A DNA stretch of 64,000 nucleotides from Gemmatimonadales bacterium. Lineage in GTDB: Bacteria; Gemmatimonadota; Gemmatimonadetes; Gemmatimonadales; GWC2-71-9. The stretch is from positions 5,520-69,519 of the forward strand of contig JBHEPH010000009.1 in the NCBI GenBank assembly GCA_046260395.1. The letters run 5' to 3'. Below the pieces are notes generated by a model. The model saw only the letters and a list, made by a program, of their open reading frames with translations. It did no database searches and was not told the DNA's origin. The position numbers and the translations under genes were made by a program. This document shows, in pieces, positions 2,788 to 19,944 of the stretch; the stretch's first letter is position 1, and each line of letters starts with the position of its first letter.

Positions 2788-4833
2788 ATGCCGCGACTCC
2801 ATCGTTTGCTCCCGGGAGGGCTTGCCCTCGCGCTCATTGCGTCATCGGCGACCGTGCTGTCGGGCCAGGGCGTCCGCTTCACCCTCGCGCCATCCGCGGA
2901 ATACATCTGGTGGGACGACGCGCTCCCGATCAAGGATTACACCCTCATCGGCGCGCGCGCGGGCGCTGACTTCGGCCGGCTGATCGGCGTGACCGCCTGG
3001 TATCACCGTGGCACCGACATCCCGGTGATGCTGTCCACGACGAGCCTGCGCAGCTCCGGCGCGCCGTTCGCCAACACCACCACTGATGTCGAGACCTATG
3101 GCACCAATCTCGAGTTCAAGCTCGGCGCCGGTCGCATCGTGCCGTTTGTCCACGGTGGTGCCGGCGTGATCCGGTTCCGACCGGCAGGGGCTCCGCACAG
3201 CGAGCAGGTGAACTACCGCTATGGCGGCGGGATCCAGTACGACGTGGCGCGCAACATCCGTGCGACGGTCCTGGTGGAGGATTCCCGGTTCCGCCTGGCA
3301 CCGGAGGCGCTGTCGGCCCAAACCCCCGATGCCCGGAGTGAGAACCCCAACGCCACCCGCAGAAACTGGACCGCCTCCGCCGCCCTCGGCTTTGCCCTGG
3401 GCGGATCGCGGTACGGCCCGACGGCCGGCGCCGACCAGTGGTCGTTTGCGTCCATCCCGATCGAGCCGTTTGTCGGCCGGCTCGACTTTGACGATGACAA
3501 CCTGCGGCGGCAGACCGTCGCCGGCGTGCGGGCCGGGGTGGACTTTGGCAACTACGTGGGCCTGCGCGGCGTGTACTGGCAGGGCCGCAGCGACGGCCTC
3601 GGCACGCGCCAGCCGATCCAGGGCTACGGCGCCGAGGCACAGTTCAACCTGAACGCGAGCCTGGGCCTGGCGCCGTTCCTCGTCGCGGGTGTCCAGCGCA
3701 TTGACTACCAGGAGGACTATCGCGACGCCCTTGGTCTGATGCGCGAGGACGAGAACGCGCTCGTGGTCGGCGGTGGAGTCGGGGTGCGTCTCACCGACAA
3801 CTTCCGGCTCAACGTGGCGGCTCGTGACTACATCCGCAGCAGCCGCGACTTCGAGGATATTGCCAGCGTGGACAACCTGACGCACAACTGGATGCTGAGC
3901 GCCGGATTGGCCTTCAACCTGGGTCGCTCGCGCGATCGCGCCGACGACGACACCCCGCAGGCACGGGAGCGGATGGTGGAGCGGGAGCGCGACGAGGCCG
4001 ACCGGGAGCCGCGGGACGCGGCGATGCCGCGGATGCGTCGCGGCGAGGCGATGGACACCATGCGCGGACGGATCATCATGCTGCCGGTGCCTGAATCCGG
4101 CGAGTTGTATGTCCGGTATGGCCAGGCCTCCACCAGCCTGATCGAGCGCCTCTCCCAGGGGGACAGCCTGTTGGGGCGCCAGACGGCCACCCTGTCGGAT
4201 GCCGACATTGACCGGATCGTCCGCCGGCTCTCCGACCACATTGACCGCATCCTTGAGCAGCGCCTCCAGCGGATGCAGATGCCGCCGGCACAGCAGCAGC
4301 GCACCCCGGTGCAGCCGCCACCGCCCCCCGCTCCAGCGGCCGCCGCGACGCCGCGGGCACCCGCGCCAGGGGCCGCCACGCCGCCGCCGCAGGTCCACAC
4401 GCCCGCCGATACCGGTCGCAGGTTTGATGGGGTGGCCGCGTATGTCGCCGGGTTCGATGCGCTGGTGCTCGGCGTGCAACTGGATGCCGGTTCCGTCTTC
4501 GGCCTGGAGGCGCTGCGGTTCGTGCCAGAGTTTGCCGTCGGCCTGGCGGGCGACAAGTCGGTGCTCTTCGCGGCCGGCGCAGAGTATCGCTTTGGGATGC
4601 TGCAGGTGAGTGAATCCGTCCGGTTGCGGCCCCACGCCCGGTTGAGCCTGGGGCTGCTGGCTGCCGGTGGCGACACCGATTCGCAGTTCGGGCCGAACTT
4701 CGCCTACGGCGTCACCTTCGCGCCCAGGGACGGCACCGCTATGGACCGCAAGCCGCGCCTGTTCGTGGAACACCAGGGGATCAGCTTCTTCGACCAGAAC
4801 CGGTTGGCGGGCGGGCTGCGCTGGACGTTCTGA
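2788..4833 (+). CDS. Outer-membrane beta-barrel protein with multiple (probably three) small barrel domains and a Pro-rich linker
   Basis: Signal peptide. Amphipathic strands such as PFVHGGAGV..YGGGIQY and PFLVAGV..GGGVGV..LSAGLAF. Pro/Ala linker and C-terminal GGLRWTF (terminal Phe). Confidence 0.75.
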   Translation: MPRLHRLLPGGLALALIASSATVLSGQGVRFTLAPSAEYIWWDDALPIKDYTLIGARAGADFGRLIGVTAWYHRGTDIPVMLSTTSLRSSGAPFANTTTDVETYGTNLEFKLGAGRIVPFVHGGAGVIRFRPAGAPHSEQVNYRYGGGIQYDVARNIRATVLVEDSRFRLAPEALSAQTPDARSENPNATRRNWTASAALGFALGGSRYGPTAGADQWSFASIPIEPFVGRLDFDDDNLRRQTVAGVRAGVDFGNYVGLRGVYWQGRSDGLGTRQPIQGYGAEAQFNLNASLGLAPFLVAGVQRIDYQEDYRDALGLMREDENALVVGGGVGVRLTDNFRLNVAARDYIRSSRDFEDIASVDNLTHNWMLSAGLAFNLGRSRDRADDDTPQARERMVERERDEADREPRDAAMPRMRRGEAMDTMRGRIIMLPVPESGELYVRYGQASTSLIERLSQGDSLLGRQTATLSDADIDRIVRRLSDHIDRILEQRLQRMQMPPAQQQRTPVQPPPPPAPAAAATPRAPAPGAATPPPQVHTPADTGRRFDGVAAYVAGFDALVLGVQLDAGSVFGLEALRFVPEFAVGLAGDKSVLFAAGAEYRFGMLQVSESVRLRPHARLSLGLLAAGGDTDSQFGPNFAYGVTFAPRDGTAMDRKPRLFVEHQGISFFDQNRLAGGLRWTF

Positions 4834-7595: not shown

Positions 7596-8357
7596 CTACT
7601 CGGCCCGACGCGCGTCGAGGCGGAGCGCCTCCAACTCGCGGCGCAGCGGGGCCCAGTACGCCCGATCCTCGGCCATGATCGCGGCCTGTTCCGCGGCGAG
7701 CGCCGCCTCAACATCCTGCCCGCGCAGCAGCGCCTGCACCGCCGGGCGCAACGACCGCTCGGCGGCGTCCGGACAGCGGGCCACGAGTTCCGCGAGGAAG
7801 GCCGGCGAGCGGAGCTCCGCCAGCCAGAACGACACCTGGGCCTCGGTGATGTCGCCATCGCGGGCGGCGGCGTACGAGGCGTCCACCAGGCGCCGGAGCA
7901 TCGGCCAATCCTTGTCGCGTTGGGTCTTCTTGGCCGCCACGAGGTCTTCCAGCGCCAGGACCTCGACCAGCACCTCCTCACCGCCCTCCGGATCTGGAAG
8001 GGCGATGGTGGTGCGGCGTTCCCAGAGCACGGGGAAGGGATCCACGCCGCGGAGCCGGCTCATGATGTCCACCCGCAACGGCGCCGCCGTGTCGTCCGGA
8101 ATGCGGAAATGCACCGCATGCCCGCGCTCGAGGTATTGCACCTCAAATGGTGGCACGGCGATCACGGTCGCGTGGAGCGCATCCAGGGCGGCGATGAGCG
8201 CGGGGAGCGCCGGCGGCGTGGCCAGCACCGCCAGGTCCAGGTCGCGGCTATACTCGGCTGCGCCGTACAACACGCACGCCTGTCCCCCCATCAACAGGGC
8301 GCGCGCGTCGCTCCTCCGGATCGTAGAAAGGACTCGCAGGATCTGGGTCGGGATCAC
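7596..8357 (-). CDS. Nucleotidyltransferase (AbiEii/DUF6036-like, pol-beta superfamily), NTase-1
   Basis: MGGQA...SRDLDL (GG..DxD) and C-terminal DLVAAKKTQRDKD motif. Confidence 0.8.
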   Translation of the reverse strand: MIPTQILRVLSTIRRSDARALLMGGQACVLYGAAEYSRDLDLAVLATPPALPALIAALDALHATVIAVPPFEVQYLERGHAVHFRIPDDTAAPLRVDIMSRLRGVDPFPVLWERRTTIALPDPEGGEEVLVEVLALEDLVAAKKTQRDKDWPMLRRLVDASYAAARDGDITEAQVSFWLAELRSPAFLAELVARCPDAAERSLRPAVQALLRGQDVEAALAAEQAAIMAEDRAYWAPLRRELEALRLDARRAE

Positions 8358-8508
8358 TGGTCCCCCCGAGCAGGTGATGCCACGCGGCCAGCCGGACGGA
8401 TTCGGCCCATCGCTGTTGCGGTGTCAGGCGCATCCAGGCGGCGGCTTCCTCGCCGTAGAGCTCGTCGAGGGTGACCCGCGGCCAGGAGGGGTCGAGGCGG
8501 ACCGTCAT
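8248..8508 (-). CDS. Small partner protein of NTase-1 (putative antitoxin)
   Basis: 86 aa, LTPQQRWAES motif. TATCTT -10 box 5 nt before the ATG. Overlaps the NTase-1 start by 110 nt. Confidence 0.65.
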   Translation of the reverse strand: MTVRLDPSWPRVTLDELYGEEAAAWMRLTPQQRWAESVRLAAWHHLLGGTSDPDPDPASPFYDPEERRARPVDGGTGVRVVRRSRV

Positions 8509-8593
8509 GCCGGAAGATAGTCGCACCCCCGAGGCGGAGCGGGATCTCGATCAATGAGGCCTCTCAGGGATTCCGCAAGCCAACACCATGCCG

Positions 8594-9496: not shown

Positions 9497-9914
9497 CCAC
9501 AGCCTCCCGGATCTGGGCCAGGGTGCGTCCCCGACCGTGCAGTCGTACGACGAACGAGCCGAGCCCGATGCAGATCGGGCACCACTTGCTCATGGAGTTG
9601 TCACCCTCGAAGCAGGTGAGCAGCGAGTAGAACCCCGGCAGCTCGGCGCAGCCACAGCTGCAGCGGATGCCGTCAATGATGTGCGGGACTTTGCGCACCG
9701 CATCGAAGAGCGCGATGAGTTCCTCGTCGCCACCGAGCTGGTCGGCCTTCAGCACCTTGTCGGCGGTGTAGTTGGGGCGCGGCTCGGGGTGCTTGGTGTG
9801 CCAGCGGGCGGCGCCCACCATACCCCGCAGCGGAGGCGGCAGGAGGCTGGCACCCGCGGCCGTGGCCAGCAGCGTGAGCAGGGCCCGTCGGGTGGTGCGG
9901 GGAACAGGGTGCAC
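9483..9914 (-). CDS. PCYCGC-motif-like Cys-rich protein with Tat signal
   Basis: TRRALL twin-arginine signal and RCSCGC...SLLTCF...CPIC. Confidence 0.75.
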   Translation of the reverse strand: MHPVPRTTRRALLTLLATAAGASLLPPPLRGMVGAARWHTKHPEPRPNYTADKVLKADQLGGDEELIALFDAVRKVPHIIDGIRCSCGCAELPGFYSLLTCFEGDNSMSKWCPICIGLGSFVVRLHGRGRTLAQIREAVDARY

Positions 9915-9983: not shown

Positions 9984-12650
9984 CTACCGAGGCCCAAACC
10001 GCGCCTGAATCTCCTCAAACCAGTTGAAGATCACGTTCAGCTCCCCGGACGCTCCCGCCGAGCTGCGGATCATCAGGAACCGACCGTCCTCCGCCACATC
10101 GTAGAATCGGCGGAAAACCCCCGTCATGGCGGCCATGTCCGTGAAGAGGATCTCCGGATTCTGGGCGGCGAAGCCGGACGATGTCGTTACTCCGACCGCC
10201 ACCACTTCTCCCCGGTCCGTGCGGTAGAAGAGCTCCCGCCCGTCCCGGCTCCAGAGTGGTTCACGCCCACCACCCACCGACACCTGCCACCGTGCCGACG
10301 CCACCTCCGGAAACGGCCGCACATAGACCTCGGCCACACCCGACTCCTCCGAGGTATAGGCGAGCCAGCGCGAGTCCGGCGACAAGACCGGGGCATACAT
10401 GTCGGCCGGACCATCGAGCAACATCCGCATGGCGGTGTCCACACCGATCTCCTGGACCAGGAGCTTGCGCGTACCGCCCCCCGAGCCGAAGGTCCGCCCG
10501 ATCAGCCAGCGACCATCCGGGGAAAAATCCACCTCATCCATCCGGCCGGGCCAGGTCGCCAGGAGGCTGGCGGTGCTGCCGCCATCGGCCCGCTGGACCC
10601 AGGCCTGCCGGCCACCGCCCTCGGCATCGGAGAGGAACGCGATCCGCTGGCCATCGGGGGACCAGACGGGGCGATCGCTGGCCCCTCCGGAAAATGTCAG
10701 CCGTGTGAAGGGCCCGGTGGGCAGCGACTTGATCCAGATCTGGGTCCCCTCAGAGGTGGCATTGGGGATGGCCACGCGGCGGCCATCGGGGGAGAGCGCG
10801 ATTCCCTCGGTAGGGTCGACCGTCCACGCGGAATCGATGACGCTGGACTCGCCCCCTCGAGTGACCCAGGTGGGATACGAGCGGCCCATGCCCAGCGCGG
10901 TCTGATAGACGAGCGTGCCCGTTTCGGACACGGCGAATTGCGCCGCGCCGCTCGTGTTGTCCATGGGAATCCCTTCCAGCACCACGGAGGGACGCCCGGT
11001 AACCCGCAAGCGGTCGGCATCGAAGGGGAGGAGGTGAACCCGCCCGTCCACGGTCGCGAAGAGCACGTGCCCCGTTCGCAGGTACCGCGCGAAGCCACCC
11101 ACTCCGATGGTATCCATCGTTCCGGTGGAAAAATCCAGTACACCGATCATGTTCTGCCCGGGCCCGCCGCGCCACAACTGGACAATGGCGCCTTTTCCAT
11201 TCGGCAGGACATCCACGAAATCGTGCTCGGTCACGCCCGGAATCGTGGAATCGATGGTCGAGACGATCGTCACCTCGCCGCCGGCCGATGGCACCCGCCC
11301 GAGCCGGCTGTCAATCCGGGTGAAGTAGATCATCCCGTCCTCGGTCCAGTCGCCACCCCAGGGCTCCGTATTCCCGGCCACGATCGTCTGCACCGTACCG
11401 CCCGTCGCGGGAATGGCCTTGAGGCTTCCCTGTACGCTCCGACCAATAAAGAAGCCAATCGTTTCACCGTCGGGAGAAAAGAACGGCGCCTGGGCGCCCT
11501 CCGTCCCCGCCAGGAAACGCGGGGTGGATTCGGCGAAATCGCGCACCACGATCCCCGGGAGGCCACCCGTTCCGCCGATCCAGGCCACCCGCCTGCCATC
11601 CGGGGAGATCGCCAGGCGCAGCGTGCCCACCGCCCGCAATCCCAGGCTGTCCGGGATGGTCATGGTCACCCGAACGACCTGGCCCGACGTGGCGGCGGGG
11701 CGTTTGAGCAGGAAGCCGAGCAGCGCCCCCGCCGCCAGCAGGATCAGCCCGGCCAGGGTCAGGACCCCGGTGCCGAGCCCGCGCACCGCAGGCCCAGCTC
11801 CAGCATGATGCCTGGACCCCGACCCCGGTGTGTTCAATGCCGCGGCAAACTCGGCGGCGCTGCCAAACCGGTCCGCGGGGAGTTTCTCGAGGGCCGTCAG
11901 TACCGCGGATTCGACATGCGGCGGCACCGTGCGCCGCTGCAGCGTCACCCCGCGGGGGGACTCGGTCATCACCCGCGCCACGATGGCCTGGGCGGTGGGA
12001 CCCGTGAACGGCGGCTCTCCCGTGAGCATCTCGTAGAGCACGCAGCCGAGGGCGTAGATGTCGGTGCGGGCGTCAATCTCGCGCGCGCCCATCGCCTGCT
12101 CGGGGGACATATAGTGCGGGGTACCGAGACTCATGCCGGTTTCGGTCATCCGGGTGCCGCCGGTGGTGGTGGCGGCGAGGGCGATGCCAAAGTCGGCCAC
12201 CAGGGCCTGACCGTCGTGCAACAGGATATTCTCGGGCTTGATGTCGCGGTGGATGACGCCCTTGCGGTGGGCGTAATCGAGTGCGCTGGCCACTTCGGTG
12301 GCCAGGCGCACCGCTTCCGCGACGGGCAGCTGCTTTTCATGCGCGATGCGATCGCGGAGCGTCTCGCCCTCCACGAACGGCATGGCGTAGAACACCGTGC
12401 CCTCGACGACGCCCGAATCGAACAGTGGCAGGATATGTGGATGCTGGAGGTTGGCGGTGGTCTTGATCTCGGCCAGGAACCGCTCCGCGCCGATGACGGC
12501 GGAGAGTTCGGGGCGCAGCACCTTGATGGCGACCTGGCGGTCATGCTTGAGGTCCTGAGCCAGGTAGACGGTGGCCATGCCGCCCTGGCCGAGTTCGCGC
12601 TCGATCCGGTAGCGGTCGGCGAGGCTTGCCCCGAGCGATTCAAAGGACAT
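9984..12650 (-). CDS. Receptor-type Ser/Thr protein kinase K3
   Basis: All Hanks motifs, TM LTLAGLILLAAGALLGFLL and SPDG propeller repeats. Confidence 0.96.
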   Translation of the reverse strand: MSFESLGASLADRYRIERELGQGGMATVYLAQDLKHDRQVAIKVLRPELSAVIGAERFLAEIKTTANLQHPHILPLFDSGVVEGTVFYAMPFVEGETLRDRIAHEKQLPVAEAVRLATEVASALDYAHRKGVIHRDIKPENILLHDGQALVADFGIALAATTTGGTRMTETGMSLGTPHYMSPEQAMGAREIDARTDIYALGCVLYEMLTGEPPFTGPTAQAIVARVMTESPRGVTLQRRTVPPHVESAVLTALEKLPADRFGSAAEFAAALNTPGSGSRHHAGAGPAVRGLGTGVLTLAGLILLAAGALLGFLLKRPAATSGQVVRVTMTIPDSLGLRAVGTLRLAISPDGRRVAWIGGTGGLPGIVVRDFAESTPRFLAGTEGAQAPFFSPDGETIGFFIGRSVQGSLKAIPATGGTVQTIVAGNTEPWGGDWTEDGMIYFTRIDSRLGRVPSAGGEVTIVSTIDSTIPGVTEHDFVDVLPNGKGAIVQLWRGGPGQNMIGVLDFSTGTMDTIGVGGFARYLRTGHVLFATVDGRVHLLPFDADRLRVTGRPSVVLEGIPMDNTSGAAQFAVSETGTLVYQTALGMGRSYPTWVTRGGESSVIDSAWTVDPTEGIALSPDGRRVAIPNATSEGTQIWIKSLPTGPFTRLTFSGGASDRPVWSPDGQRIAFLSDAEGGGRQAWVQRADGGSTASLLATWPGRMDEVDFSPDGRWLIGRTFGSGGGTRKLLVQEIGVDTAMRMLLDGPADMYAPVLSPDSRWLAYTSEESGVAEVYVRPFPEVASARWQVSVGGGREPLWSRDGRELFYRTDRGEVVAVGVTTSSGFAAQNPEILFTDMAAMTGVFRRFYDVAEDGRFLMIRSSAGASGELNVIFNWFEEIQARFGPR

Positions 12651-12713
12651 GGCTTGCCCCGGTGTCGTGGGAACTAGCCGAGTGGACGGCGGTGAGGCGT
12701 TCGAGGACGGCGG

Positions 12714-15388
12714 TCATGGTTTCGCCTTGGCCTTCAACTCCTCAATCCAGTTCTCGACCACCACGATCGCGGCCTCCCGGCCGGGATCTCCGCCGACCAG
12801 ACGCGCCATGAGGAACCGGCCATCGCGGGCGACGTCCCACGGCGCGTAGTACAGCGCCTCCGCACCCAGCAGTTCCTCGCGAACGCGGAACAAGACCTCA
12901 GGCGCGCCGACCACGAGGGCCGCGCCCGCGGCGACCGGCGCGGCCATCATATGGCGACTGGAACTCAGGTAGAAGAGTTGCCGTCCGTCACGCGACCAGA
13001 CCGGGGCGAGCCCACCACCGCTGGAGACCTGGGCCTTGCCCGCATCGGTGCCGGGGAACGGCCGCACGAACACCTCCGTCTGGCCGGTCTCATCGGACTG
13101 GTAGGCCATCCACCGGCCATCGGGGGAGAACGCCATCGCCATTTCGTCGAAGTCCGTCGCGAGCACTGGGCGTGGTGTCGAATCGGCACCGATGCGCACG
13201 CCGGTGATGTTGCGCCCACCGGCCACCTGGCCGACCGAGCCCTGGCGGAGGACGATCCACCGGTTGTCCGGCGTGATCAGGCCCTCATCGATGATGCCCT
13301 CCACCAGCAGGGAATCCGCCCCCGACCCATCCGCCCGACGCCAGTACAGTCCACTCGGGCGGCGATCTGACCGGAAGGTGACGTAGCGACTGTCGGCGGT
13401 CCACCGGGGCCGCGAGTCCGAGAAGGGATCGAAAGTGACTCGGTACGGTGCCCCCCTCGGCAGCGGCTTGACCCAGATATCATCACCCAAGCTGGTGGCA
13501 AGCCCGATCGCGACCCGGGATCCGTCCGGAGAGAGCGCCCACCCGTGGTTGTTGGCGGTGGCGGTCAATTGGAAGGTCCAGGCGGTGTCCACCGGTGTCT
13601 CCCGTCCGACCTGATCCACCCAGACCATCTCGAAGGTCCGACCGGTGATGTTTCCCTCTCCGACCACCATGACGAGCGTGCCGGCGGCCGACACGCGGAG
13701 CAACTGGTTTCCGGCGTTGACAGCGAGCTGCTCACCGAGTGGGACGGGCGTTCCCGCGACCTCGAGGCGACCCACGTCGAACGGGACGGCGAACAACGCT
13801 CCGTCACCGCTGGTGTAGATGAGATGCCCCGTCGGCACAAAGGCCCCCTCGAAGGCGTCCCGCAGCAGCGGGTGAGCGCTGTCGGTCTCGAGGTCGAGCG
13901 CCCAGAGCTGGCCCTCGACACAACCGGGCAGACAGGAAAGGAAGATCACGCCACGCGCACCGGGCAGCGCCGTAGGGAGCATGGAGACCAACGAATCGGA
14001 CTGCCAAACCACCGACGCCGTGCTGGCCTCGGCCGACACCCGCATCAGCCCCCTCGCGCCCCGCATCGGATAGATGATGGAGCCGTCGGCGAGCCAGGTC
14101 ACGCCGAACTGACTGGCGACGTCGGTGCTGGACACCAAAATCGCCGAGCCTCCCACCACGGGAATCTTGTTGAGCCGACCGTTGAGGATGAAGGCGATCC
14201 ACTCCCCGTCCGGCGACAAGGTGAAGCTCTGGGTTCCGGTGGTGCCAAGGATGGGGGTGGCGGTGTAGCTGTCGCGACGCTTGATCCAGAGTTGGTTGCC
14301 GGCTTCGCCGGGCCCGAGGTACACCAGGAACGAGCCATCAGGGGAAGGAGTCGCCGCTCCGCTGCCCAGCACCGGCGCCTGGGAGGCGGGAAGGGCCAGG
14401 CCGTAGCGGATGACGGGGGGGGTGGGCACCGGGCGGAGCCAACCCCAACCCGCGACTGCCGCGGTGAGGAGGAGAACGGCGCCCAGGAGGGCGGGTTGGC
14501 CTGGCGGCCGGAGAGCCCGGTGCCCGGCGGCGACTCGCCGGGCTGCAAGCCCCGTGCCCGGCCCGCCCTCTCCGGCCAGCGCGGCGCTGAACTCTGCGGC
14601 ACTCGCAAACCGATCCGCCGGCAACTTGGCCAGGGCGGTGAGCACCGCATCCTCCACGGCCGGCGGGATCGTCTTTCGCCGCATCGTTGGCGGCCGGGGA
14701 TCTTCGGTGATCACCTGGGCCACGATGGCCTGTGCCGTCGAGCCGGTGAACGGCGGATCGCCGGTCAGCATTTCATAAGTCACGCAGCCCAGGGCATACA
14801 CATCGGAGCGGGCGGTGATCTCGCGTTCGCCCATTGCCTGTTCGGGGCTCATGTAGTGGGGGTGCCGAGGCTCATCCCCGTCTCGGTCATCCGGGAGCCG
14901 GCACTGGTCGCGGCCAGCGCAATACCGAAATCGGCCACCAGCGCGCTGCCATCGTGCAGCAGAATGTTCTCGGGCTTGATGTCCCGATGAATCACTCCAT
15001 GGCGGTGGGCGTAATCGAGAGCGCTGGCGATTTCCCGCGCGATGCGAACGGATTCGTCAATCGGGAGCTGCTTCTCGCGAGTCAGGCGGTCGCGGAGCGA
15101 CTCGCCCTCGACGTACGGCATGACATAGTAGAGGAATGCCCCCGCCACCCCGCTGTCGTGCAGCGGCAGGATGTGCGGATGCTGCAGATTGGCGGTGGTC
15201 TTGATCTCGGCCAGGAATCGCTCGGCGCCGATCACCGCGGCGAGCTCGGGCCGCAGCACCTTGAGAGCCACCTGGCGGTCGTGCTTGAGGTCTTGAGCCA
15301 GGTAGACGGTGGCCATGCCGCCCTGGCCGAGCTCGCGCTCGATCCGGTAGCGGTCGGACAGGCTTGCCCCGAGGGCCTCAATTCCCAT
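12714..15388 (-). pseudogene. Receptor-type Ser/Thr protein kinase K4, split by a 1-nt deletion in a G5 run (real frameshift or sequencing error)
   Basis: ORF 14849..15388 ends ..SLGTPTT and ORF 12714..14852 begins MSPEQ. Paralogues read GTPHYMSPEQ, and one extra G at 14858-14862 restores the frame. Confidence 0.85.
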
Positions 15389-15426
15389 GGCAGATACCCT
15401 GATCTGGATGGCCCGAGGGGGCCGCG
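15345..15426. repeat. Direct repeat copy 1 (K4 leader and first codons)
   Basis: 75/82 identical to 16994..17075 by manual alignment. Confidence 0.92.
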
Positions 15427-15439
15427 GTGAGGCACTCGT

Positions 15440-15961
15440 TCACGGCGGGAAGATCGCGTCGACGGCGCGCCGAAACGACGGCGGGTCGATCGCTGGAAAG
15501 CGATACAACTGAGGTTCCAGCAGGGCAAACTGGCGCCGCACTTCCGTCGTCTCGATCAGCCCTCGGTTGCGCATCGCGTCCACATCCGCCAGGTCACGGG
15601 CATGCCCCCGTTCGATCTTGGCCAGGGCCTGGGCCGTGAAGTCATAGTGGTGAAAAGTGACCCGCCCGATGCGCACGATGACCGGGCTGCGCTCCTCCCA
15701 CCCCGCGGGGACGGGAATGAACTGGTCCGGCGACGCAAGCTCGACGTTCAGCCGGAGCCGCTCCTTGAGGACCGGAATCGCCCGGAGCATGGCGTCGGAT
15801 TCGGGACGCATTACGAGGTCAACATCAATCGTCGTCGGGCGCCATCCGATCAGGACCGCCGAGGTGCCGCCGACGAGATAGACATCGGTTTCCGCGGTGG
15901 CCTCGCGCGCCAAGGCCGCGAGGAAGGCCTCAATTCGGGACTGATCCGCTACCTCGCGCAT
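15440..15961 (-). CDS. DUF6036-like nucleotidyltransferase, NTase-2
   Basis: VYLVGGTSAVLIGWRPTTIDVDL and ALAKIERGHARDLADV motifs. Confidence 0.82.
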   Translation of the reverse strand: MREVADQSRIEAFLAALAREATAETDVYLVGGTSAVLIGWRPTTIDVDLVMRPESDAMLRAIPVLKERLRLNVELASPDQFIPVPAGWEERSPVIVRIGRVTFHHYDFTAQALAKIERGHARDLADVDAMRNRGLIETTEVRRQFALLEPQLYRFPAIDPPSFRRAVDAIFPP

Positions 15962-16221
15962 GCGCTGGCACGCTGGAAGCTCACCAGTCGGCGCAGGAGC
16001 GCATTGTAGCGGGCGTGGGCCCCGGCCCCGTGCCGCTCCGCCAGGAGCCGATAGAGCCGGAGTTCCGGGTCCACCAAGGGCTCGGGCACGACGAACCCCA
16101 GCGTACGCAGACCCGGCGCGCCGAGCGAGACGAGGAGTGCCTCGATGGTTTCGGCACGTTCGTCGAGGTCGCGCAGACCCCGCTCCACGAGTTCGCCTCC
16201 CGGCAGTCCGTCCGGTGTCAT
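15949..16221 (-). CDS. Small helical partner protein of NTase-2 (putative antitoxin)
   Basis: 90 aa, LPGGELVERGLRDL...AHARYNALLRRLVSF. TAGATT -10 box 7 nt before ATG 16221. Overlaps NTase-2 by 13 nt. Confidence 0.7.
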   Translation of the reverse strand: MTPDGLPGGELVERGLRDLDERAETIEALLVSLGAPGLRTLGFVVPEPLVDPELRLYRLLAERHGAGAHARYNALLRRLVSFQRASACAR

Positions 16222-16303
16222 GGGTTCGAATCTATCGTCCCCCGACGGGTTCGGCCAGCCGAGACGCACGCTCGCGCCGCGGTGCCGAGGCGCTCGATGG
16301 TGG

Positions 16304-16693
16304 TCATGCGGGAAGCACCTCGATGTCGTACTGGCGGAACTGCCCATCCGCACTGATGATCGGCACCCCTTCCACCTGAGCCTGGGCCACCAGCAGCCGG
16401 TCGAAGGGGTCGCGATGGTGCTCGGGCAGCTCGGCGACGTGGAGCGCGTGTCGATGATGGATGGGCAACGGGGTGACGCTGGTGTGGACCATCATGCGCG
16501 GGATGTATTTCGCGGGGGATTCGGGGAGCTGGAGCTTGCCGAGTCCATGCTTGATGGCGATCTCCCACGCACTCACCGCGGAGAACAACAGTTCATTGTC
16601 CGCCGCGACGAGCAGCGACCGGCTTTCGACTGAAAGCCGGTCGGGCGCCGCCAGCATCCAGAGCCAGACCTGGGTGTCGAGGAGGACTCTCAC
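16304..16693 (-). CDS. vapC: VapC PIN-domain toxin
   Basis: LLDTQVWLW, SAVSAWEIAIK, HHRDPFDRLLVAQA and IISAD motifs. Confidence 0.95.
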   Translation of the reverse strand: MRVLLDTQVWLWMLAAPDRLSVESRSLLVAADNELLFSAVSAWEIAIKHGLGKLQLPESPAKYIPRMMVHTSVTPLPIHHRHALHVAELPEHHRDPFDRLLVAQAQVEGVPIISADGQFRQYDIEVLPA

Positions 16694-16935
16694 TGCGCGA
16701 ACGCATCGAGGAGATCCGGCGGGAGCGCGTCGAAGTCGTCGGCGATTTGCACCGTGCCCCGCTCACTGCCGAGCGGTCGTTCGGTCCCGGGTGCGAGGAT
16801 GGGGACCAATCGGGCGACCGGGACACCCGCCCGGGCGATGATGACCTCCTCGCCATCGGCCGTCTGCTCGAGCAGCTTCGAGAGATTGGTCTTGGCCTCG
16901 TGCACGTTGTAGGTCCGGGAGGCGGGATGTTTCAT
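16690..16935 (-). CDS. Phd/YefM-family antitoxin
   Basis: NVHEAKTNLSKLLE..GEEVIIARAGVPVARLVP. 4-nt overlap with vapC. Confidence 0.95.
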   Translation of the reverse strand: MKHPASRTYNVHEAKTNLSKLLEQTADGEEVIIARAGVPVARLVPILAPGTERPLGSERGTVQIADDFDALPPDLLDAFAQ

Positions 16936-16941
16936 GGTTTC

Positions 16942-16970
16942 AACTTAGCTAAGGACGCGGGCTAAGTCAA
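16942..16970 (-). promoter_or_regulatory. Sigma70-type promoter with inverted-repeat operator of phd-vapC (leaderless)
   Basis: TTGACT-17 bp-TAAGTT, 6 nt before the ATG. ACTTAGC/GCTAAGT inverted repeat and CTTAGCTAAG palindrome overlap it. Confidence 0.7.
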
Positions 16971-17037
16971 GCTTCTGGGTCCCGCGCCCGAGGCGGTAGC
17001 GGTCGGAGAGGCTTGCCCCGATGGCCTCAATTCCCAT
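16945..17037 (-). pseudogene. Truncated kinase 5' remnant (30-aa mini-ORF MGIEAIGASLSDRYRLGRG...)
   Basis: First 16 codons match K4 MGIEALGASLSDRYRI at 14 of 16 residues, then the ORF runs into the TA promoter. Confidence 0.8.
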
Positions 17038-17075
17038 GGCAGATGCCCCGAACAGAATGGCCCGAGGGGGCCGCG
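16994..17075. repeat. Direct repeat copy 2 (kinase leader and first codons)
   Basis: Matches 15345..15426 at an offset of 1649 bp. Confidence 0.92.
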
Positions 17076-17094
17076 CCCAGGCGCGATGGGAGCG

Positions 17095-19794
17095 TCACTG
17101 CCGCGCCCGGAGCGTGCCCAGGAAATTCTGGATCAGCACCAGTTCGGTGGCCGTCGAGTCGCTGCGCGCGGCACTCCAGAGCCGCAGGAAGCGCTGGTCA
17201 TCCAGCCCGACTTCATAGAGCGGCATGACCCCGATCGCGTGGAGCAGTTGACGTCGTCCGATCGACAGCGCCGGGTCGGTCCGGATCTCGACCGCCATGA
17301 ACCCGTTGGAGAGGTTCAGGAAGAAGAGTTCCTTGCCGGTGCGCGACCACCGGGGATTGTACCCTCCGTCGAGCGAGACTTGCCACTCGCCCCGGTTCAC
17401 GTCGGGGAAGGGGCGGATATACACCTCGATCCGCCCCGACTCTTCCGAAGCATAGGCGAGCCACCTGCCGTCCGGGGAGAGGGCCGGCATTCCCTCGTAG
17501 GCGGGGCCCTCGAGCAGGGGGATCATTGCCGTGTCAATGCCGGGCTGGAACGCCAGGAGGTCCCCACCACCACCCGAAATCCCCATGGTTCCCACGACCA
17601 CCCATCCGTCCCGGCTGGAGACGGCTGCCGACGCAACGCCCCGTGGATCGGTCAGGAGGGGCTCGGGCGAACCGGTACCGTCGGCGCGGAGCCGGAATAG
17701 CTGGAACCGCAGGTTCGGATCGTCGGGCGGTGCGGAGGCATAGACGATGGACTGGCCATCGGCGGTCCACGCGGCCTGCCTGTTGACACGGGTGAAGGTC
17801 AACTTGGAAACCGGACCGTCGTCCAGGTCCTTGACCCAGATGTCGCTGGCGCCTCCGGGCCCGGCAATATTGGAGCCGATCGTGAGGGCGAGCCGCTTTC
17901 CGTCCGGCGAGAGCGCCCAATCCTGGATCGTTTCCGGCGGGATGTCCCAGCCCGGGTCGACCAACGTTGCGCTGCCATCCCGGCGGACCCAGGAGGGCCG
18001 CTGCCCGCCCTGCACCGTGGAACTCACGTAGAGGAGATCCCCCGTGGGGGCGAGCGCCAGGTCCACGCCGCCGAACCCGGCAACCCCCAACCCCTCTACG
18101 ATCGGGGTCGGGGACCCGGTGAACTCCATCCGGTCCTGGTCAAAGGGGGCCGCCAGCATCACCCCGTCGGCGCTCACATACACCAGGTGGCCGGTCGGCG
18201 TGTACCGGGCCACCAGACCGGGGACCAGGACCCGGGACTCGCGGGTGACGAGGTCAATCACCTTGAGGAGGTAGCTCCGGGTGGACTCGCCCGCCCGGCG
18301 TGAGCGGTACACCAGGCCCTTGCCGTTGGGGAGCGGCTCGGGCCAGGCGAAGCCGACCTCTCCGTTCGCGACATCGAGGGCCACCACCACCTCGCGGTCA
18401 CTCCCGTCTCCTCGCACCCGGTCCAGGCTGTTGCCGGCGTCGAAGTAGACCCAGTCGTCCTTGCTCCAGGCCACCCCGCCACCGATCACGGCACTGTCTG
18501 CCAGGGTCACCGCCGGGGCCCCGTTGATCGCCACCACGCGGACGGTGAACGGACCGGTCCCGAGGAAGGCGATCCGGCTCCCGTCCGGAGAAAAGCTCGG
18601 CGACATCCCCCCTTCGGTGCCCGGCAGCGCCGTAGCCTCGAGCTGCCCGAAGGGCCGGAGCAGGAGCATTGGCCTGCCGGTTTCGTCCACGCCGGCGTAG
18701 ACGAACCCCGAGCCATCCGGGGCCAGGGCAAGGCGATTGATGCCCAACGGGCTCAGTGGATTACTGCGGGCGAAGGCCAGGCTCAGGCGCCGGACCGGTG
18801 CCTCAGGGGCTGGACGGGTGGCGAACCAGGCGGCGGCCAAGGTGGCGACCAGGGCCACACTCGCCATGGCCAGAGTGAGCGGATTCCAGGGCGAGCGAGA
18901 TGCCCCTCGCCCAACGCTGGTACCGGTCATCCCTTGGACCGTGAAGGCGGTGTTGCCCAACGCCTCGGCGAACTCCGCGGCGGTGGCAAAGCGGTCCGCC
19001 GGGAGCCGCTCCAGCGCCCTGTGGATCGCGGCCGCCACATGATCCGGCACCGAACTCCTCGCCTTGGTGACCAGCGGTGCCGTCTCGGTCAGGATCTTGG
19101 CCACGATGGCCTGGGCGGAATTCCCGGTGAACGGCGGAGACCCGGTGAGCATCTCGTAGAGCATGGCGCCGAGCGAGTAGATGTCGCTGCGGGCAGTGAT
19201 CTCCCGGTCGCCCATCGCCTGCTCGGGGCTCATGTATGAAGGGGTGCCAACCGAGAGTCCGGTGCCGGTGAGCCGGGTGCCGCCGGCCTCACGAATGGCC
19301 AGTGCGATCCCGAAGTCGGCGACCATCGCCTGCCCATCATGGAGCAGGACGTTCTCGGGCTTGATGTCGCGGTGGATCACCCCATGACGGTGGGCGTAGT
19401 CCAGCGCTGCCGCCACACTGCGGGTCAATTCGACCGCCTCCTTGACGCTGAGTTCCTTCTCGCGCTGGAGCTTGTCGCGCAGGGTGTCACCCTGCACAAA
19501 GGGCATGACATAATAGAGAAAGCGGGAGCCCTCCCCTTCGCCGGCCTGGGCGATACCGGAGTCAAAGAGCGGCAGGATGTGGGGGTGCTGCAGGTTGGCG
19601 GTGACCTCGATTTCCTTGAGGAACCGCTCGGCACCAATCATCGCGGCCAGCTCGGCGGCCAGGACCTTGACGGCCACCTTGCGGTTGTGGCGCAGGTCGT
19701 GGGCCAGGTAGACGGTGGCCATGCCCCCCTGGCCGATTTCCCGTTCGATCCGGTAGCGGTCGGCCAGGCTCGCCGCCAGGCGTTCGAGAATCAT
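17095..19794 (-). CDS. Receptor-type Ser/Thr protein kinase K5
   Basis: Start MILERLAASLADRY chosen by paralogue alignment. Hanks motifs, TM helix and SPDG repeats. Confidence 0.95.
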   Translation of the reverse strand: MILERLAASLADRYRIEREIGQGGMATVYLAHDLRHNRKVAVKVLAAELAAMIGAERFLKEIEVTANLQHPHILPLFDSGIAQAGEGEGSRFLYYVMPFVQGDTLRDKLQREKELSVKEAVELTRSVAAALDYAHRHGVIHRDIKPENVLLHDGQAMVADFGIALAIREAGGTRLTGTGLSVGTPSYMSPEQAMGDREITARSDIYSLGAMLYEMLTGSPPFTGNSAQAIVAKILTETAPLVTKARSSVPDHVAAAIHRALERLPADRFATAAEFAEALGNTAFTVQGMTGTSVGRGASRSPWNPLTLAMASVALVATLAAAWFATRPAPEAPVRRLSLAFARSNPLSPLGINRLALAPDGSGFVYAGVDETGRPMLLLRPFGQLEATALPGTEGGMSPSFSPDGSRIAFLGTGPFTVRVVAINGAPAVTLADSAVIGGGVAWSKDDWVYFDAGNSLDRVRGDGSDREVVVALDVANGEVGFAWPEPLPNGKGLVYRSRRAGESTRSYLLKVIDLVTRESRVLVPGLVARYTPTGHLVYVSADGVMLAAPFDQDRMEFTGSPTPIVEGLGVAGFGGVDLALAPTGDLLYVSSTVQGGQRPSWVRRDGSATLVDPGWDIPPETIQDWALSPDGKRLALTIGSNIAGPGGASDIWVKDLDDGPVSKLTFTRVNRQAAWTADGQSIVYASAPPDDPNLRFQLFRLRADGTGSPEPLLTDPRGVASAAVSSRDGWVVVGTMGISGGGGDLLAFQPGIDTAMIPLLEGPAYEGMPALSPDGRWLAYASEESGRIEVYIRPFPDVNRGEWQVSLDGGYNPRWSRTGKELFFLNLSNGFMAVEIRTDPALSIGRRQLLHAIGVMPLYEVGLDDQRFLRLWSAARSDSTATELVLIQNFLGTLRARQ

Positions 19795-19944
19795 CGCAGG
19801 GCCTGGCGGACGGCACCAGCGGTGGATGTGCCGAAACACGGCTCCAGCGGATGGTTCACGTGATCTCCAGCAAGGGAGGCCCCTGAAGATGGCGCGCGGG
19901 GGTCGCCCGCGATAGCCCCCGCCCCGCGAGCCGGCCGGTGGCCA

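Follow-up and report, generated by a model that had tools for sequence, protein, structure and literature searches.

Introduction

Ectopic gene conversion and unequal crossover occur in tandem arrays of paralogous genes. For chromosomal toxin-antitoxin islets of Photorhabdus, which are small, homologous recombination of the flanking regions was proposed as the route of spread (Belot et al. 2026, PMC13617665). In Microcystis a toxin-antitoxin pair neighbouring an orthocaspase gene is located between two direct repeats (Klemencic et al. 2021, PMC7935541). Here, a phd-vapC toxin-antitoxin module was investigated which lies between two copies of a kinase 5' end in a Gemmatimonadales bacterium. The analysed stretch of 64,000 nucleotides (nt), called the window below, corresponds to positions 5520-69519 of contig C203 (JBHEPH010000009.1) of the source genome G000 (GCA_046260395.1), a metagenome-assembled genome of 3.2 Mb in 213 contigs. 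We consider it likely that the locus goes back to an old kinase gene stump fused to phd-vapC, which was reshuffled and partly converted in a recombining array of kinase paralogs, and to the separate arrival of a nucleotidyltransferase gene pair.

The locus resembles cases of ectopic conversion and unequal crossover in that its 5' ends are mosaic, gene bodies that are orthologous stand under differing leaders, a patch has homology on both of its sides, and stump breakpoints are reused. The difference is that the direction and timing of exchange at the kinase locus are deduced from four genomes. The Photorhabdus islets are likewise small units without recombinase, variable among close relatives, with differing neighbourhoods and with modules clustered in one variable region (PMC13617665). 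Their flanks are single-copy core genes, whereas those of the kinase locus are multi-copy paralogs. Hence, the same homology is offered at about 20 places per genome and gene stumps are left behind. The Microcystis pair is comparable in its position downstream of a signalling or protease gene, in its direct repeats of about 100-150 bp and in the missing recombinase (PMC7935541). In contrast to its 152-bp repeats, which are identical and non-coding, the repeats of the kinase locus are 87% identical, represent the 5' end of a gene family and occur in three copies.

Results

All genes of the locus are located on the minus strand. Their order from 5' to 3' is K5, copy B, phd, vapC, a small open reading frame (ORF), a nucleotidyltransferase gene, copy A, K4 and K3. 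The features are given below in window coordinates (aa, amino acids).

17095..19839, minus strand: K5, Ser/Thr kinase with PD40 beta-propeller domain, 914 aa, upstream of the stump (Pkinase, E = 8.5e-51; PD40, E = 1.5e-19)
16983..17082, minus strand: copy B, kinase leader and first 18-19 codons, a gene stump with its ATG at 17037 (repeat alignment, nhmmer profile)
16942..16970, minus strand: putative promoter-like/operator region of phd, TTGACT (16970-16965), 17 nt, TAAGTT (16947-16942) (sequence inspection)
16690..16935, minus strand: phd, antitoxin of the Phd/YefM family, 81 aa (PF02604, E = 1.1e-10; TIGR01552, E = 5.9e-9)
16304..16693, minus strand: vapC, PIN-domain toxin, 129 aa (PF01850, E = 1.3e-15)
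16278..16307, minus strand: remC, MTTIERLGTA, the 10 initial codons of the kinase gene located after vapC in relatives (alignment with L032, G001, G002 and L030)
15949..16224, minus strand: small ORF, 91 aa, partner of the nucleotidyltransferase (without known family)
15440..15961, minus strand: DUF6036 nucleotidyltransferase, 173 aa (PF19502, E = 1e-5)
15334..15433, minus strand: copy A, 5' end of K4 comprising its leader and 18 codons, ATG at 15388 (repeat alignments)
12714..15388, minus strand: K4, kinase-PD40 gene, split into frames of 179 aa and 712 aa (ORFs; Pfam halves)
9984-12650, minus strand: K3 (locus order)

An 82-bp direct repeat of a kinase leader and 5' end had been described in the original prediction, which was made from the letters of the window. 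The repeat was confirmed: 15345-15426 and 16994-17075 are identical at 75 of 82 positions (91.46%; blastn E = 1.2e-24 against the 3.2-Mb genome). At its full extent it comprises 100 nt without gaps (15334-15433 and 16983-17082, 87/100 identical), and repeat finding and local alignment agree on this. In the upstream copy an aborted kinase start was said to run into the sequence preceding phd, and this also held. After MGIEAIGASLSDRYRLGRG, copy B departs from the kinase frame; its frame ends with the TAA at 16947-16945, 9 nt ahead of the phd ATG. With an nhmmer profile covering the 24 initial codons of the kinases, copy B was matched at positions 5-55 (E = 4.5e-5), and no kinase core follows downstream.

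A third copy of leader and start was identified at C158:283-369 of G000, heading a kinase that is cut off by the contig end. From -38 to +45 of the ATG the three copies are equidistant, with 75/83 identical positions for A and B and 73/83 for either of them with the C158 copy. Upstream of -38 they are unrelated (7/19, 6/19 and 10/19). A degenerate pattern spanning all three copies gave no match in a collection of 185,579 species, which may omit G000 itself. Being equidistant and without pattern matches elsewhere, the three copies constitute a young, lineage-specific family of kinase 5' ends. The flanks attL and attR of a Campbell-type integration would be each other's closest relatives; here, the C158 copy is equally close to both. 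Recombination between the repeats, which had been suggested to excise the cassette and to restore an intact kinase start, formally leaves K5, leader and K4; the longest exact runs are 22, 19 and 14 nt.

Like copy B, the K4 leader is composite. Its first codon is a GTG that overlaps the stop of the nucleotidyltransferase gene, and its sequence resembles a kinase start (..LTAA..) that has decayed. The leaders of K3 (12650-12720) and K4 (15389-15445) resemble decayed older kinase starts with ATG or GTG over the preceding stop, ..RLTA.., and a newer start about 60 nt further on. The gaps between kinases of the G001 array fall into classes of 5-14 nt, 62-63 nt and more than 700 nt, which fits nested partial duplications of 5' ends. 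No match was obtained in an Rfam search of 15200-17300 at E ≤ 1. An RNA element in the leader was rejected as well, since the hairpin GGCCC-CCTC-GGGCC folds no better than shuffled sequences in the three copies (z = -1.14, +0.70 and +0.62). One terminator-like match was found, with 0.9 expected by chance.

The junction between stump and phd was compared in related genomes. G001 and G002, which belong to the same genus, hold phd-vapC (83% and 86% nt identity, respectively) without the nucleotidyltransferase pair. In both genomes a decayed ..SDRYRIE..-like stump stands directly before the TTGACT of the phd region, and the leaders before these stumps are unalike. The same junction was detected in L032, one of the four closest loci besides G001 and G002 among 80 loci with VapC relatives. 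In L032 it is located behind the C-terminus of the K5 ortholog (..ELVLIQNFLATLRARK, followed by the stop), and the stump is of another type, matching the start (VEPSRLAAALADRYRIEREL) of the intact kinase that follows the K5 ortholog of G001. The junction is thus found at the same kinase position in G001, G002 and L032, behind different kinases. Being common to these three, it predates the arrangement in G000. Among 14 displayed loci, stumps were recognized by eye in four, namely G000, L029 (taken as G002:C34), L032 and L033 (G001); L030 and L031, equally close in VapC, showed no stump in this display. With nhmmer at E ≤ 0.01 a stump was found in only one of the 80 loci.

The kinases around this junction belong to a large family. 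In G000 some 20 Ser/Thr-kinase/PD40 genes, closely related to one another, are arrayed head to tail on three contigs; 20 kinase N-termini on C203, C158 and C188 are at least 67% identical in aa (among 53 matches at E ≤ 1e-10). A conserved 5' block of about 60 nt is nearly identical across the paralogs (..LSDRYRIERELGQGGMATVY..), and the same kind of leader precedes six of the G000 kinases. Orthology was judged on the C-terminal sensor domains, which are 66-75% identical between orthologs and at most 43% between paralogs. By identity over the full length or the C-terminus, K5 has orthologs in L032 (74.7% of 897 aa) and G001 (73.7% of 894 aa), with paralogs at 43% or less. The K5 ortholog of G001 is directly followed by an intact kinase without a toxin-antitoxin module. 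This kinase differs from K4, and its ortholog in G000 is intact at C131:34488-32287 (80.4% of 734 aa). The upstream kinase and the stump of G001 align with C158:9343-6890 of G000 (82.3% over 2484 nt), where the kinase is intact; the body of the ortholog of this kinase is found 55 kb off in G001 (77.3% over 3503 nt), under a different leader. Orthologous C-termini with differing 5' ends indicate repeated new pairings of gene bodies with 5' ends, the joints falling within the conserved 5' block.

Upstream of the kinase on C131 (34700-35650), a PIN-gene fragment and an opposite nucleotidyltransferase/HEPN-like pair were seen by eye. A weak profile match at C131:35552 was discarded as a kinase stump, as it appears by eye to be part of a PIN gene. 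The C-terminal ortholog of K4 is found on G002:C136 (75% identity). The gene is broken across contigs in G002; its probable 5' end, C332:451-2 (81.6% nt identity), follows a CysK-like gene and is without similar leader. In the window, the frame of K4 breaks near 14850-14857, where GGCACCCCCACTACATGAGCC (14846-14860) stands in place of codons for GTPHYMSPEQ in the paralogs. This fits the loss of one base from a C run, which is either a true pseudogene mutation or a homopolymer assembly error.

When the sequences after the K5 stop in G000, L032 and G001 are aligned, the first 35 nt or so of copy B can be matched to the beginning of the L032 stump as well as to the kinase of G001, at roughly two-thirds identity as counted in the alignment. 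G000 then has about 58 extra nt carrying a new ATG and MGIEAIGASLS, and all three sequences resume at GACCGCT.CCGC. The extra nt are located between ..GCGGCCC..TCG and GACCGCTACCG.., both of which are present in the counterparts of L032 and G001, the only two comparators. K4 and C158:335 are equally good donors for this patch. A K4-type patch with kinase 5' homology on both sides would correspond to the pattern of gene conversion between paralogs.

The interval of 1.65 kb between copies A and B turned out to be composed of two modules. A kinase gene, or what is left of one, follows vapC in L032, G001, G002 and L030, its start and the vapC stop overlapping as ATGA or GTGA. Just 30 nt of this kinase start are kept in G000 (16307-16278, ATG overlapping the vapC stop as ATGA), where unrelated sequence then leads into the small ORF; the relatives continue past these 30 nt into ..LSDRYRIEREL... 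Since this second stump lies between vapC and the nucleotidyltransferase pair, the 1.65 kb are not one unit. The pair is absent at the phd-vapC locus of the close relatives checked (G001, G002, L030 and L032). Rather than being present or absent as a whole, the interval is represented by phd-vapC alone in these four and by the pair alone in G023 and G038. A related decay was observed in G002 (L012, G002:C34, 3289-4444), where the gene after vapC consists of 10 kinase codons (MTSLDRLTAA) followed by the C-terminal sensor part without kinase domain, i.e. an internal deletion.

The nucleotidyltransferase gene overlaps the small ORF by 13 nt, and its stop overlaps the GTG (GTGA) heading the K4 leader. 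Its assignment to DUF6036 lies just above the threshold (PF19502, 25.8 bits versus 23.6, E = 1e-5). For the small ORF of 91 aa no match was found in Pfam, NCBIfam, PADLOC or PDB sequences; the nucleotidyltransferase, too, has neither a PDB sequence relative nor a PADLOC family. It is single-copy in G000 and is 56-57% identical in aa to its counterparts in G023 and G038, where the small ORF reaches 58%. The pair is thus conserved (56-58%) in two other genera, and no kinase was present in the loci examined there. The term double toxin-antitoxin cassette, used in the original prediction, applies to the phd-vapC half, which matches the Phd and PIN families. For the nucleotidyltransferase half, whose partner is not a recognized antitoxin or toxin family, this status is unproven, as the small ORF is without family and the pairing alone is conserved. 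The predicted lack of a recombinase between the copies was borne out. The four ORFs match Phd, PIN, nothing and DUF6036, and both flanks are kinases; profile scans covered these four ORFs only, and no further ORF of at least 40 aa in the interval matched a recombinase.

For phd-vapC the assignment is clear. Phd scores 41.6 bits with PF02604 (cut-off 29.8) and 35.1 with TIGR01552 (20.8). VapC scores 58.5 bits with the PIN family PF01850 (23.6) and has the acidic residues D6, E44, D98 and D116, which we take to be the catalytic positions of PIN domains. The antitoxin gene comes first, and phd (16935-16690) and vapC (16693-16304) overlap by 4 nt. A phd match adjoins vapC in 73 of the 80 related loci. 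In G001 and G002 Phd is 81% identical over 64 aligned residues; VapC is 88-91% identical in G001, G002 and L030. The region upstream of phd contains repeated TTAGC motifs, and the phd ATG is placed 6 nt past the second hexamer. When 14 homologous loci are aligned, 10 of them carry TTGACT as the first hexamer, and the remaining four have TTGCCT. A sigma-70 scan of 15250-17250 gave no site, the phd region failing its criteria. Hence, the phd promoter is deduced from the conservation of the hexamer.

The module agrees with type II Phd/YefM-VapC modules in the order of antitoxin and toxin, the 4-nt overlap, the Phd and PIN domains, the four acidic residues and a palindromic upstream region. It differs in its location within a tandem array of kinase paralogs and in the overlap of the vapC stop with a kinase start codon (ATGA or GTGA) in G001, G002, L032 and L030; its toxin role is predicted from sequence. 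A phd-vapC homolog in a non-kinase context was found in G016, an observation which none of the conclusions uses. In L009 (G005:C111, about 1500-2300) a phd homolog (70% aa identity) stands beside a nucleotidyltransferase-like ORF (DFVEMLSALRDAGADYLVVGAHALAAHG..) and not beside a PIN gene, which suggests that antitoxin and toxin families swap partners.

Other kinase 5' remnants, for which the original prediction had proposed a search, were looked for across G000. With the profile 34 matches were obtained at E ≤ 0.005. Three of them have no kinase core; apart from copy B these are C188:4266-4219 and an artefact at a contig end. The stump on C188 (MTRLSGALSDRDRLEHQ) is followed by TTGACT-17-TATGTT and then by a gene of the Phd family and a PIN gene, the stop of which overlaps the ATG of a kinase. 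This second module is unrelated to the first (Phd 30% aa identity, no blastp match for VapC). The relative closest to it, L110 (87%), has a kinase on either side, with a spacer of about 30 nt and no stump. The C188 module was not found in G001, G002 or 22 of 23 other relatives at E ≤ 1e-15, with a partial match of 146 nt at 75% in G003. For the flanking kinases no ortholog was detected in G001 (E ≤ 1e-60), and the best match in G002 is 39%.

Furthermore, stumps are present beside genes of other kinds. In G001:C3:364538-364660 (L022) a secreted peptidase-like gene comes after a stump of 38 codons (MSIDRLTATLADRFRIERELRKGGRATTYLAQDLKHD), and there is no toxin-antitoxin module. In another Gemmatimonadota assembly (L118, 2431-2530) a stump of 23 codons, ending after ..ERELGQ, follows a relative of the second VapC, and a DinB-like gene comes next. 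The breakpoints of the stumps are at about codons 10, 10, 19-23, 19-23, 23 and 38. Stumps are common and not tied to toxin-antitoxin genes.

Toxin-antitoxin-like pairs were observed directly before many array kinases, the toxin stop often overlapping the kinase start. In the window, a small ORF and a weak AbiEii-like nucleotidyltransferase (Pfam) at 7596-8526 precede an array kinase. On C158 (L026) a helix-turn-helix protein (Pfam) with a nucleotidyltransferase-like neighbour (by eye) is located at 15306-16137, and an antitoxin-like ORF with ParE (Pfam) at 12043-12538. C188 (L025) holds Phd and PIN genes at 3443-4164 (Pfam) and a PIN fragment at about 9607-9777 (by eye). Two VapBC-like pairs were recognized by eye in G001 at C3:317579-318243 and C3:369613-370339.

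Discussion

Copy B would represent the leader and the first 19 or so codons of a kinase whose body was lost, joined to the promoter region of phd-vapC. This stump-phd junction was probably made once, before G000, G001, G002 and L032 diverged, and may later have been moved behind different upstream kinases by homologous recombination in the conserved block of about 60 nt. In the G000 lineage the stump behind K5 would then have gained the K4-type patch of about 58 nt, with its new ATG (MGIEA...), by gene conversion or exchange. The source may have been a member of the three-copy family of 5' ends specific for G000 (K4, C158:335 and the stump), and the patch would create the direct repeat of 82-100 nt. 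The small ORF and the DUF6036 gene presumably arrived separately, removing the body of the kinase after vapC and leaving 30 nt of it. This explanation starts from what was observed, that is the repeat, its third copy, the shared junction, its differing contexts, the second stump and the absence of the pair in relatives. The direction, the mechanism (conversion or crossover) and the order of the exchanges we infer from four genomes. The option of a duplication followed by deletion, mentioned in the original prediction, is close in spirit to this comparative picture.

Four points weigh against the explanation. The orthology of the first 35 nt or so of copy B with the L032 stump comes from a short alignment, and all kinase 5' ends look alike. 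The gain of the patch in G000 is judged by two comparators, and a loss of 58 nt in L032 via recombination of nested repeats is possible. The junctions of vapC, remC and small ORF and of nucleotidyltransferase and K4 exist only in this assembly of 213 contigs. Finally, two unrelated phd-vapC modules are found behind stumps ending at profile positions 54-55, a coincidence which is not predicted by turnover of the array and for which a preferred insertion site could be responsible.

Array recombination with conversion has to be compared with another course, in which a complete K4-like paralog with its leader was located between K5 and phd-vapC and lost its body in place by a single deletion, from about codon 19 to the phd promoter. 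The repeat would then be plain paralogy without any conversion. Leader and gene do form a duplication unit, as the leader shared by six G000 kinases indicates, and the K4 leader subtype exists in three recent copies. Deletions reaching into an addictive toxin-antitoxin module should be selected against, which could have set the right end at the promoter. However, the same phd-side junction occurs in L032, G001 and G002 with other types of stumps and would have to be recreated by an independent deletion in G000. Moreover, the L032 stump directly overlaps the K5 stop, so that no room is left for an extra paralog. We therefore regard decay in place as unlikely.

Integration of one cargo at the 5' end of K4, one of the two options of the original prediction, found little support in the comparison and is improbable. 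In this case circular or linear DNA with phd-vapC, with or without the nucleotidyltransferase pair, and a piece of a kinase 5' end would have recombined at K4, either of Campbell type or by homology-facilitated illegitimate recombination, the conserved 5' block acting as a landing pad without recombinase, and the leader and initial codons would have been duplicated thereby. Direct repeats bracketing an insert without recombinase gene speak for such an event, as does the same phd-vapC behind different kinases across species. Two unrelated phd-vapC modules, moreover, stand behind stumps ending at profile positions 55 and 54. The spread proposed for the Photorhabdus islets by recombination at their flanks points in the same direction (PMC13617665). 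The stump junction, however, is older than the present arrangement, the second stump divides the insert into two modules, and the third copy is as close to A and B as these are to one another. The ancestral neighbour of K5 was another kinase and not K4, as seen in G001. Furthermore, L110, closest to the second module, sits between two kinases without a stump, and the stumps beside genes other than toxin-antitoxin genes (G001:C3 and L118) already suggest a similar frequency there.

The coincidence of the two phd-side junctions is the best argument for a docking site, and this reading was kept for that reason, albeit as a speculative one with little probability. The first 20-24 kinase codons, up to the glycine-loop block, might serve small toxin-antitoxin operons as a preferred docking site without recombinase. 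Modules with a stump on the left and a kinase on the right might hop among about 20 paralogs by host recombination, so that the array would be an integration platform, and the ATGA and GTGA overlaps might couple the translation of toxin and kinase into functional units.

Were contig C203 chimeric, misjoined within repeated kinase 5' sequence, the bracketing arrangement would be present in no cell. This would fit the 213 contigs, of which several break off within kinase genes (C158:1, C203:1-128), the junctions on both sides of the nucleotidyltransferase pair, which are without independent support, and the K4 frameshift in a homopolymer run. It is very unlikely, however, since the copies differ at 13 of 100 positions and an assembler would hence not collapse or bridge them, the part from K5 over the stump to phd-vapC is reproduced in the independent assembly L032, and remC follows on from the vapC stop in register, as its counterparts do in four other genomes.

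With array recombination as the probable origin, the locus is best seen as a scar that recombination between paralogs, an ordinary process, left next to a Phd-VapC module that is ordinary as well; it reveals no new mechanism of mobility. Its value is modest: it illustrates how toxin-antitoxin modules devoid of mobility genes come to have other neighbours within a multi-copy gene family. Such turnover yields stumps and nested 5' duplications that mimic integration footprints. The toxin-antitoxin-like modules that immediately precede an array kinase number at least six in G000 and at least three in G001, and their stop often overlaps the kinase start. If this association with array kinases exceeds hitch-hiking, it would bear on the clustering of toxin-antitoxin modules in particular variable regions.

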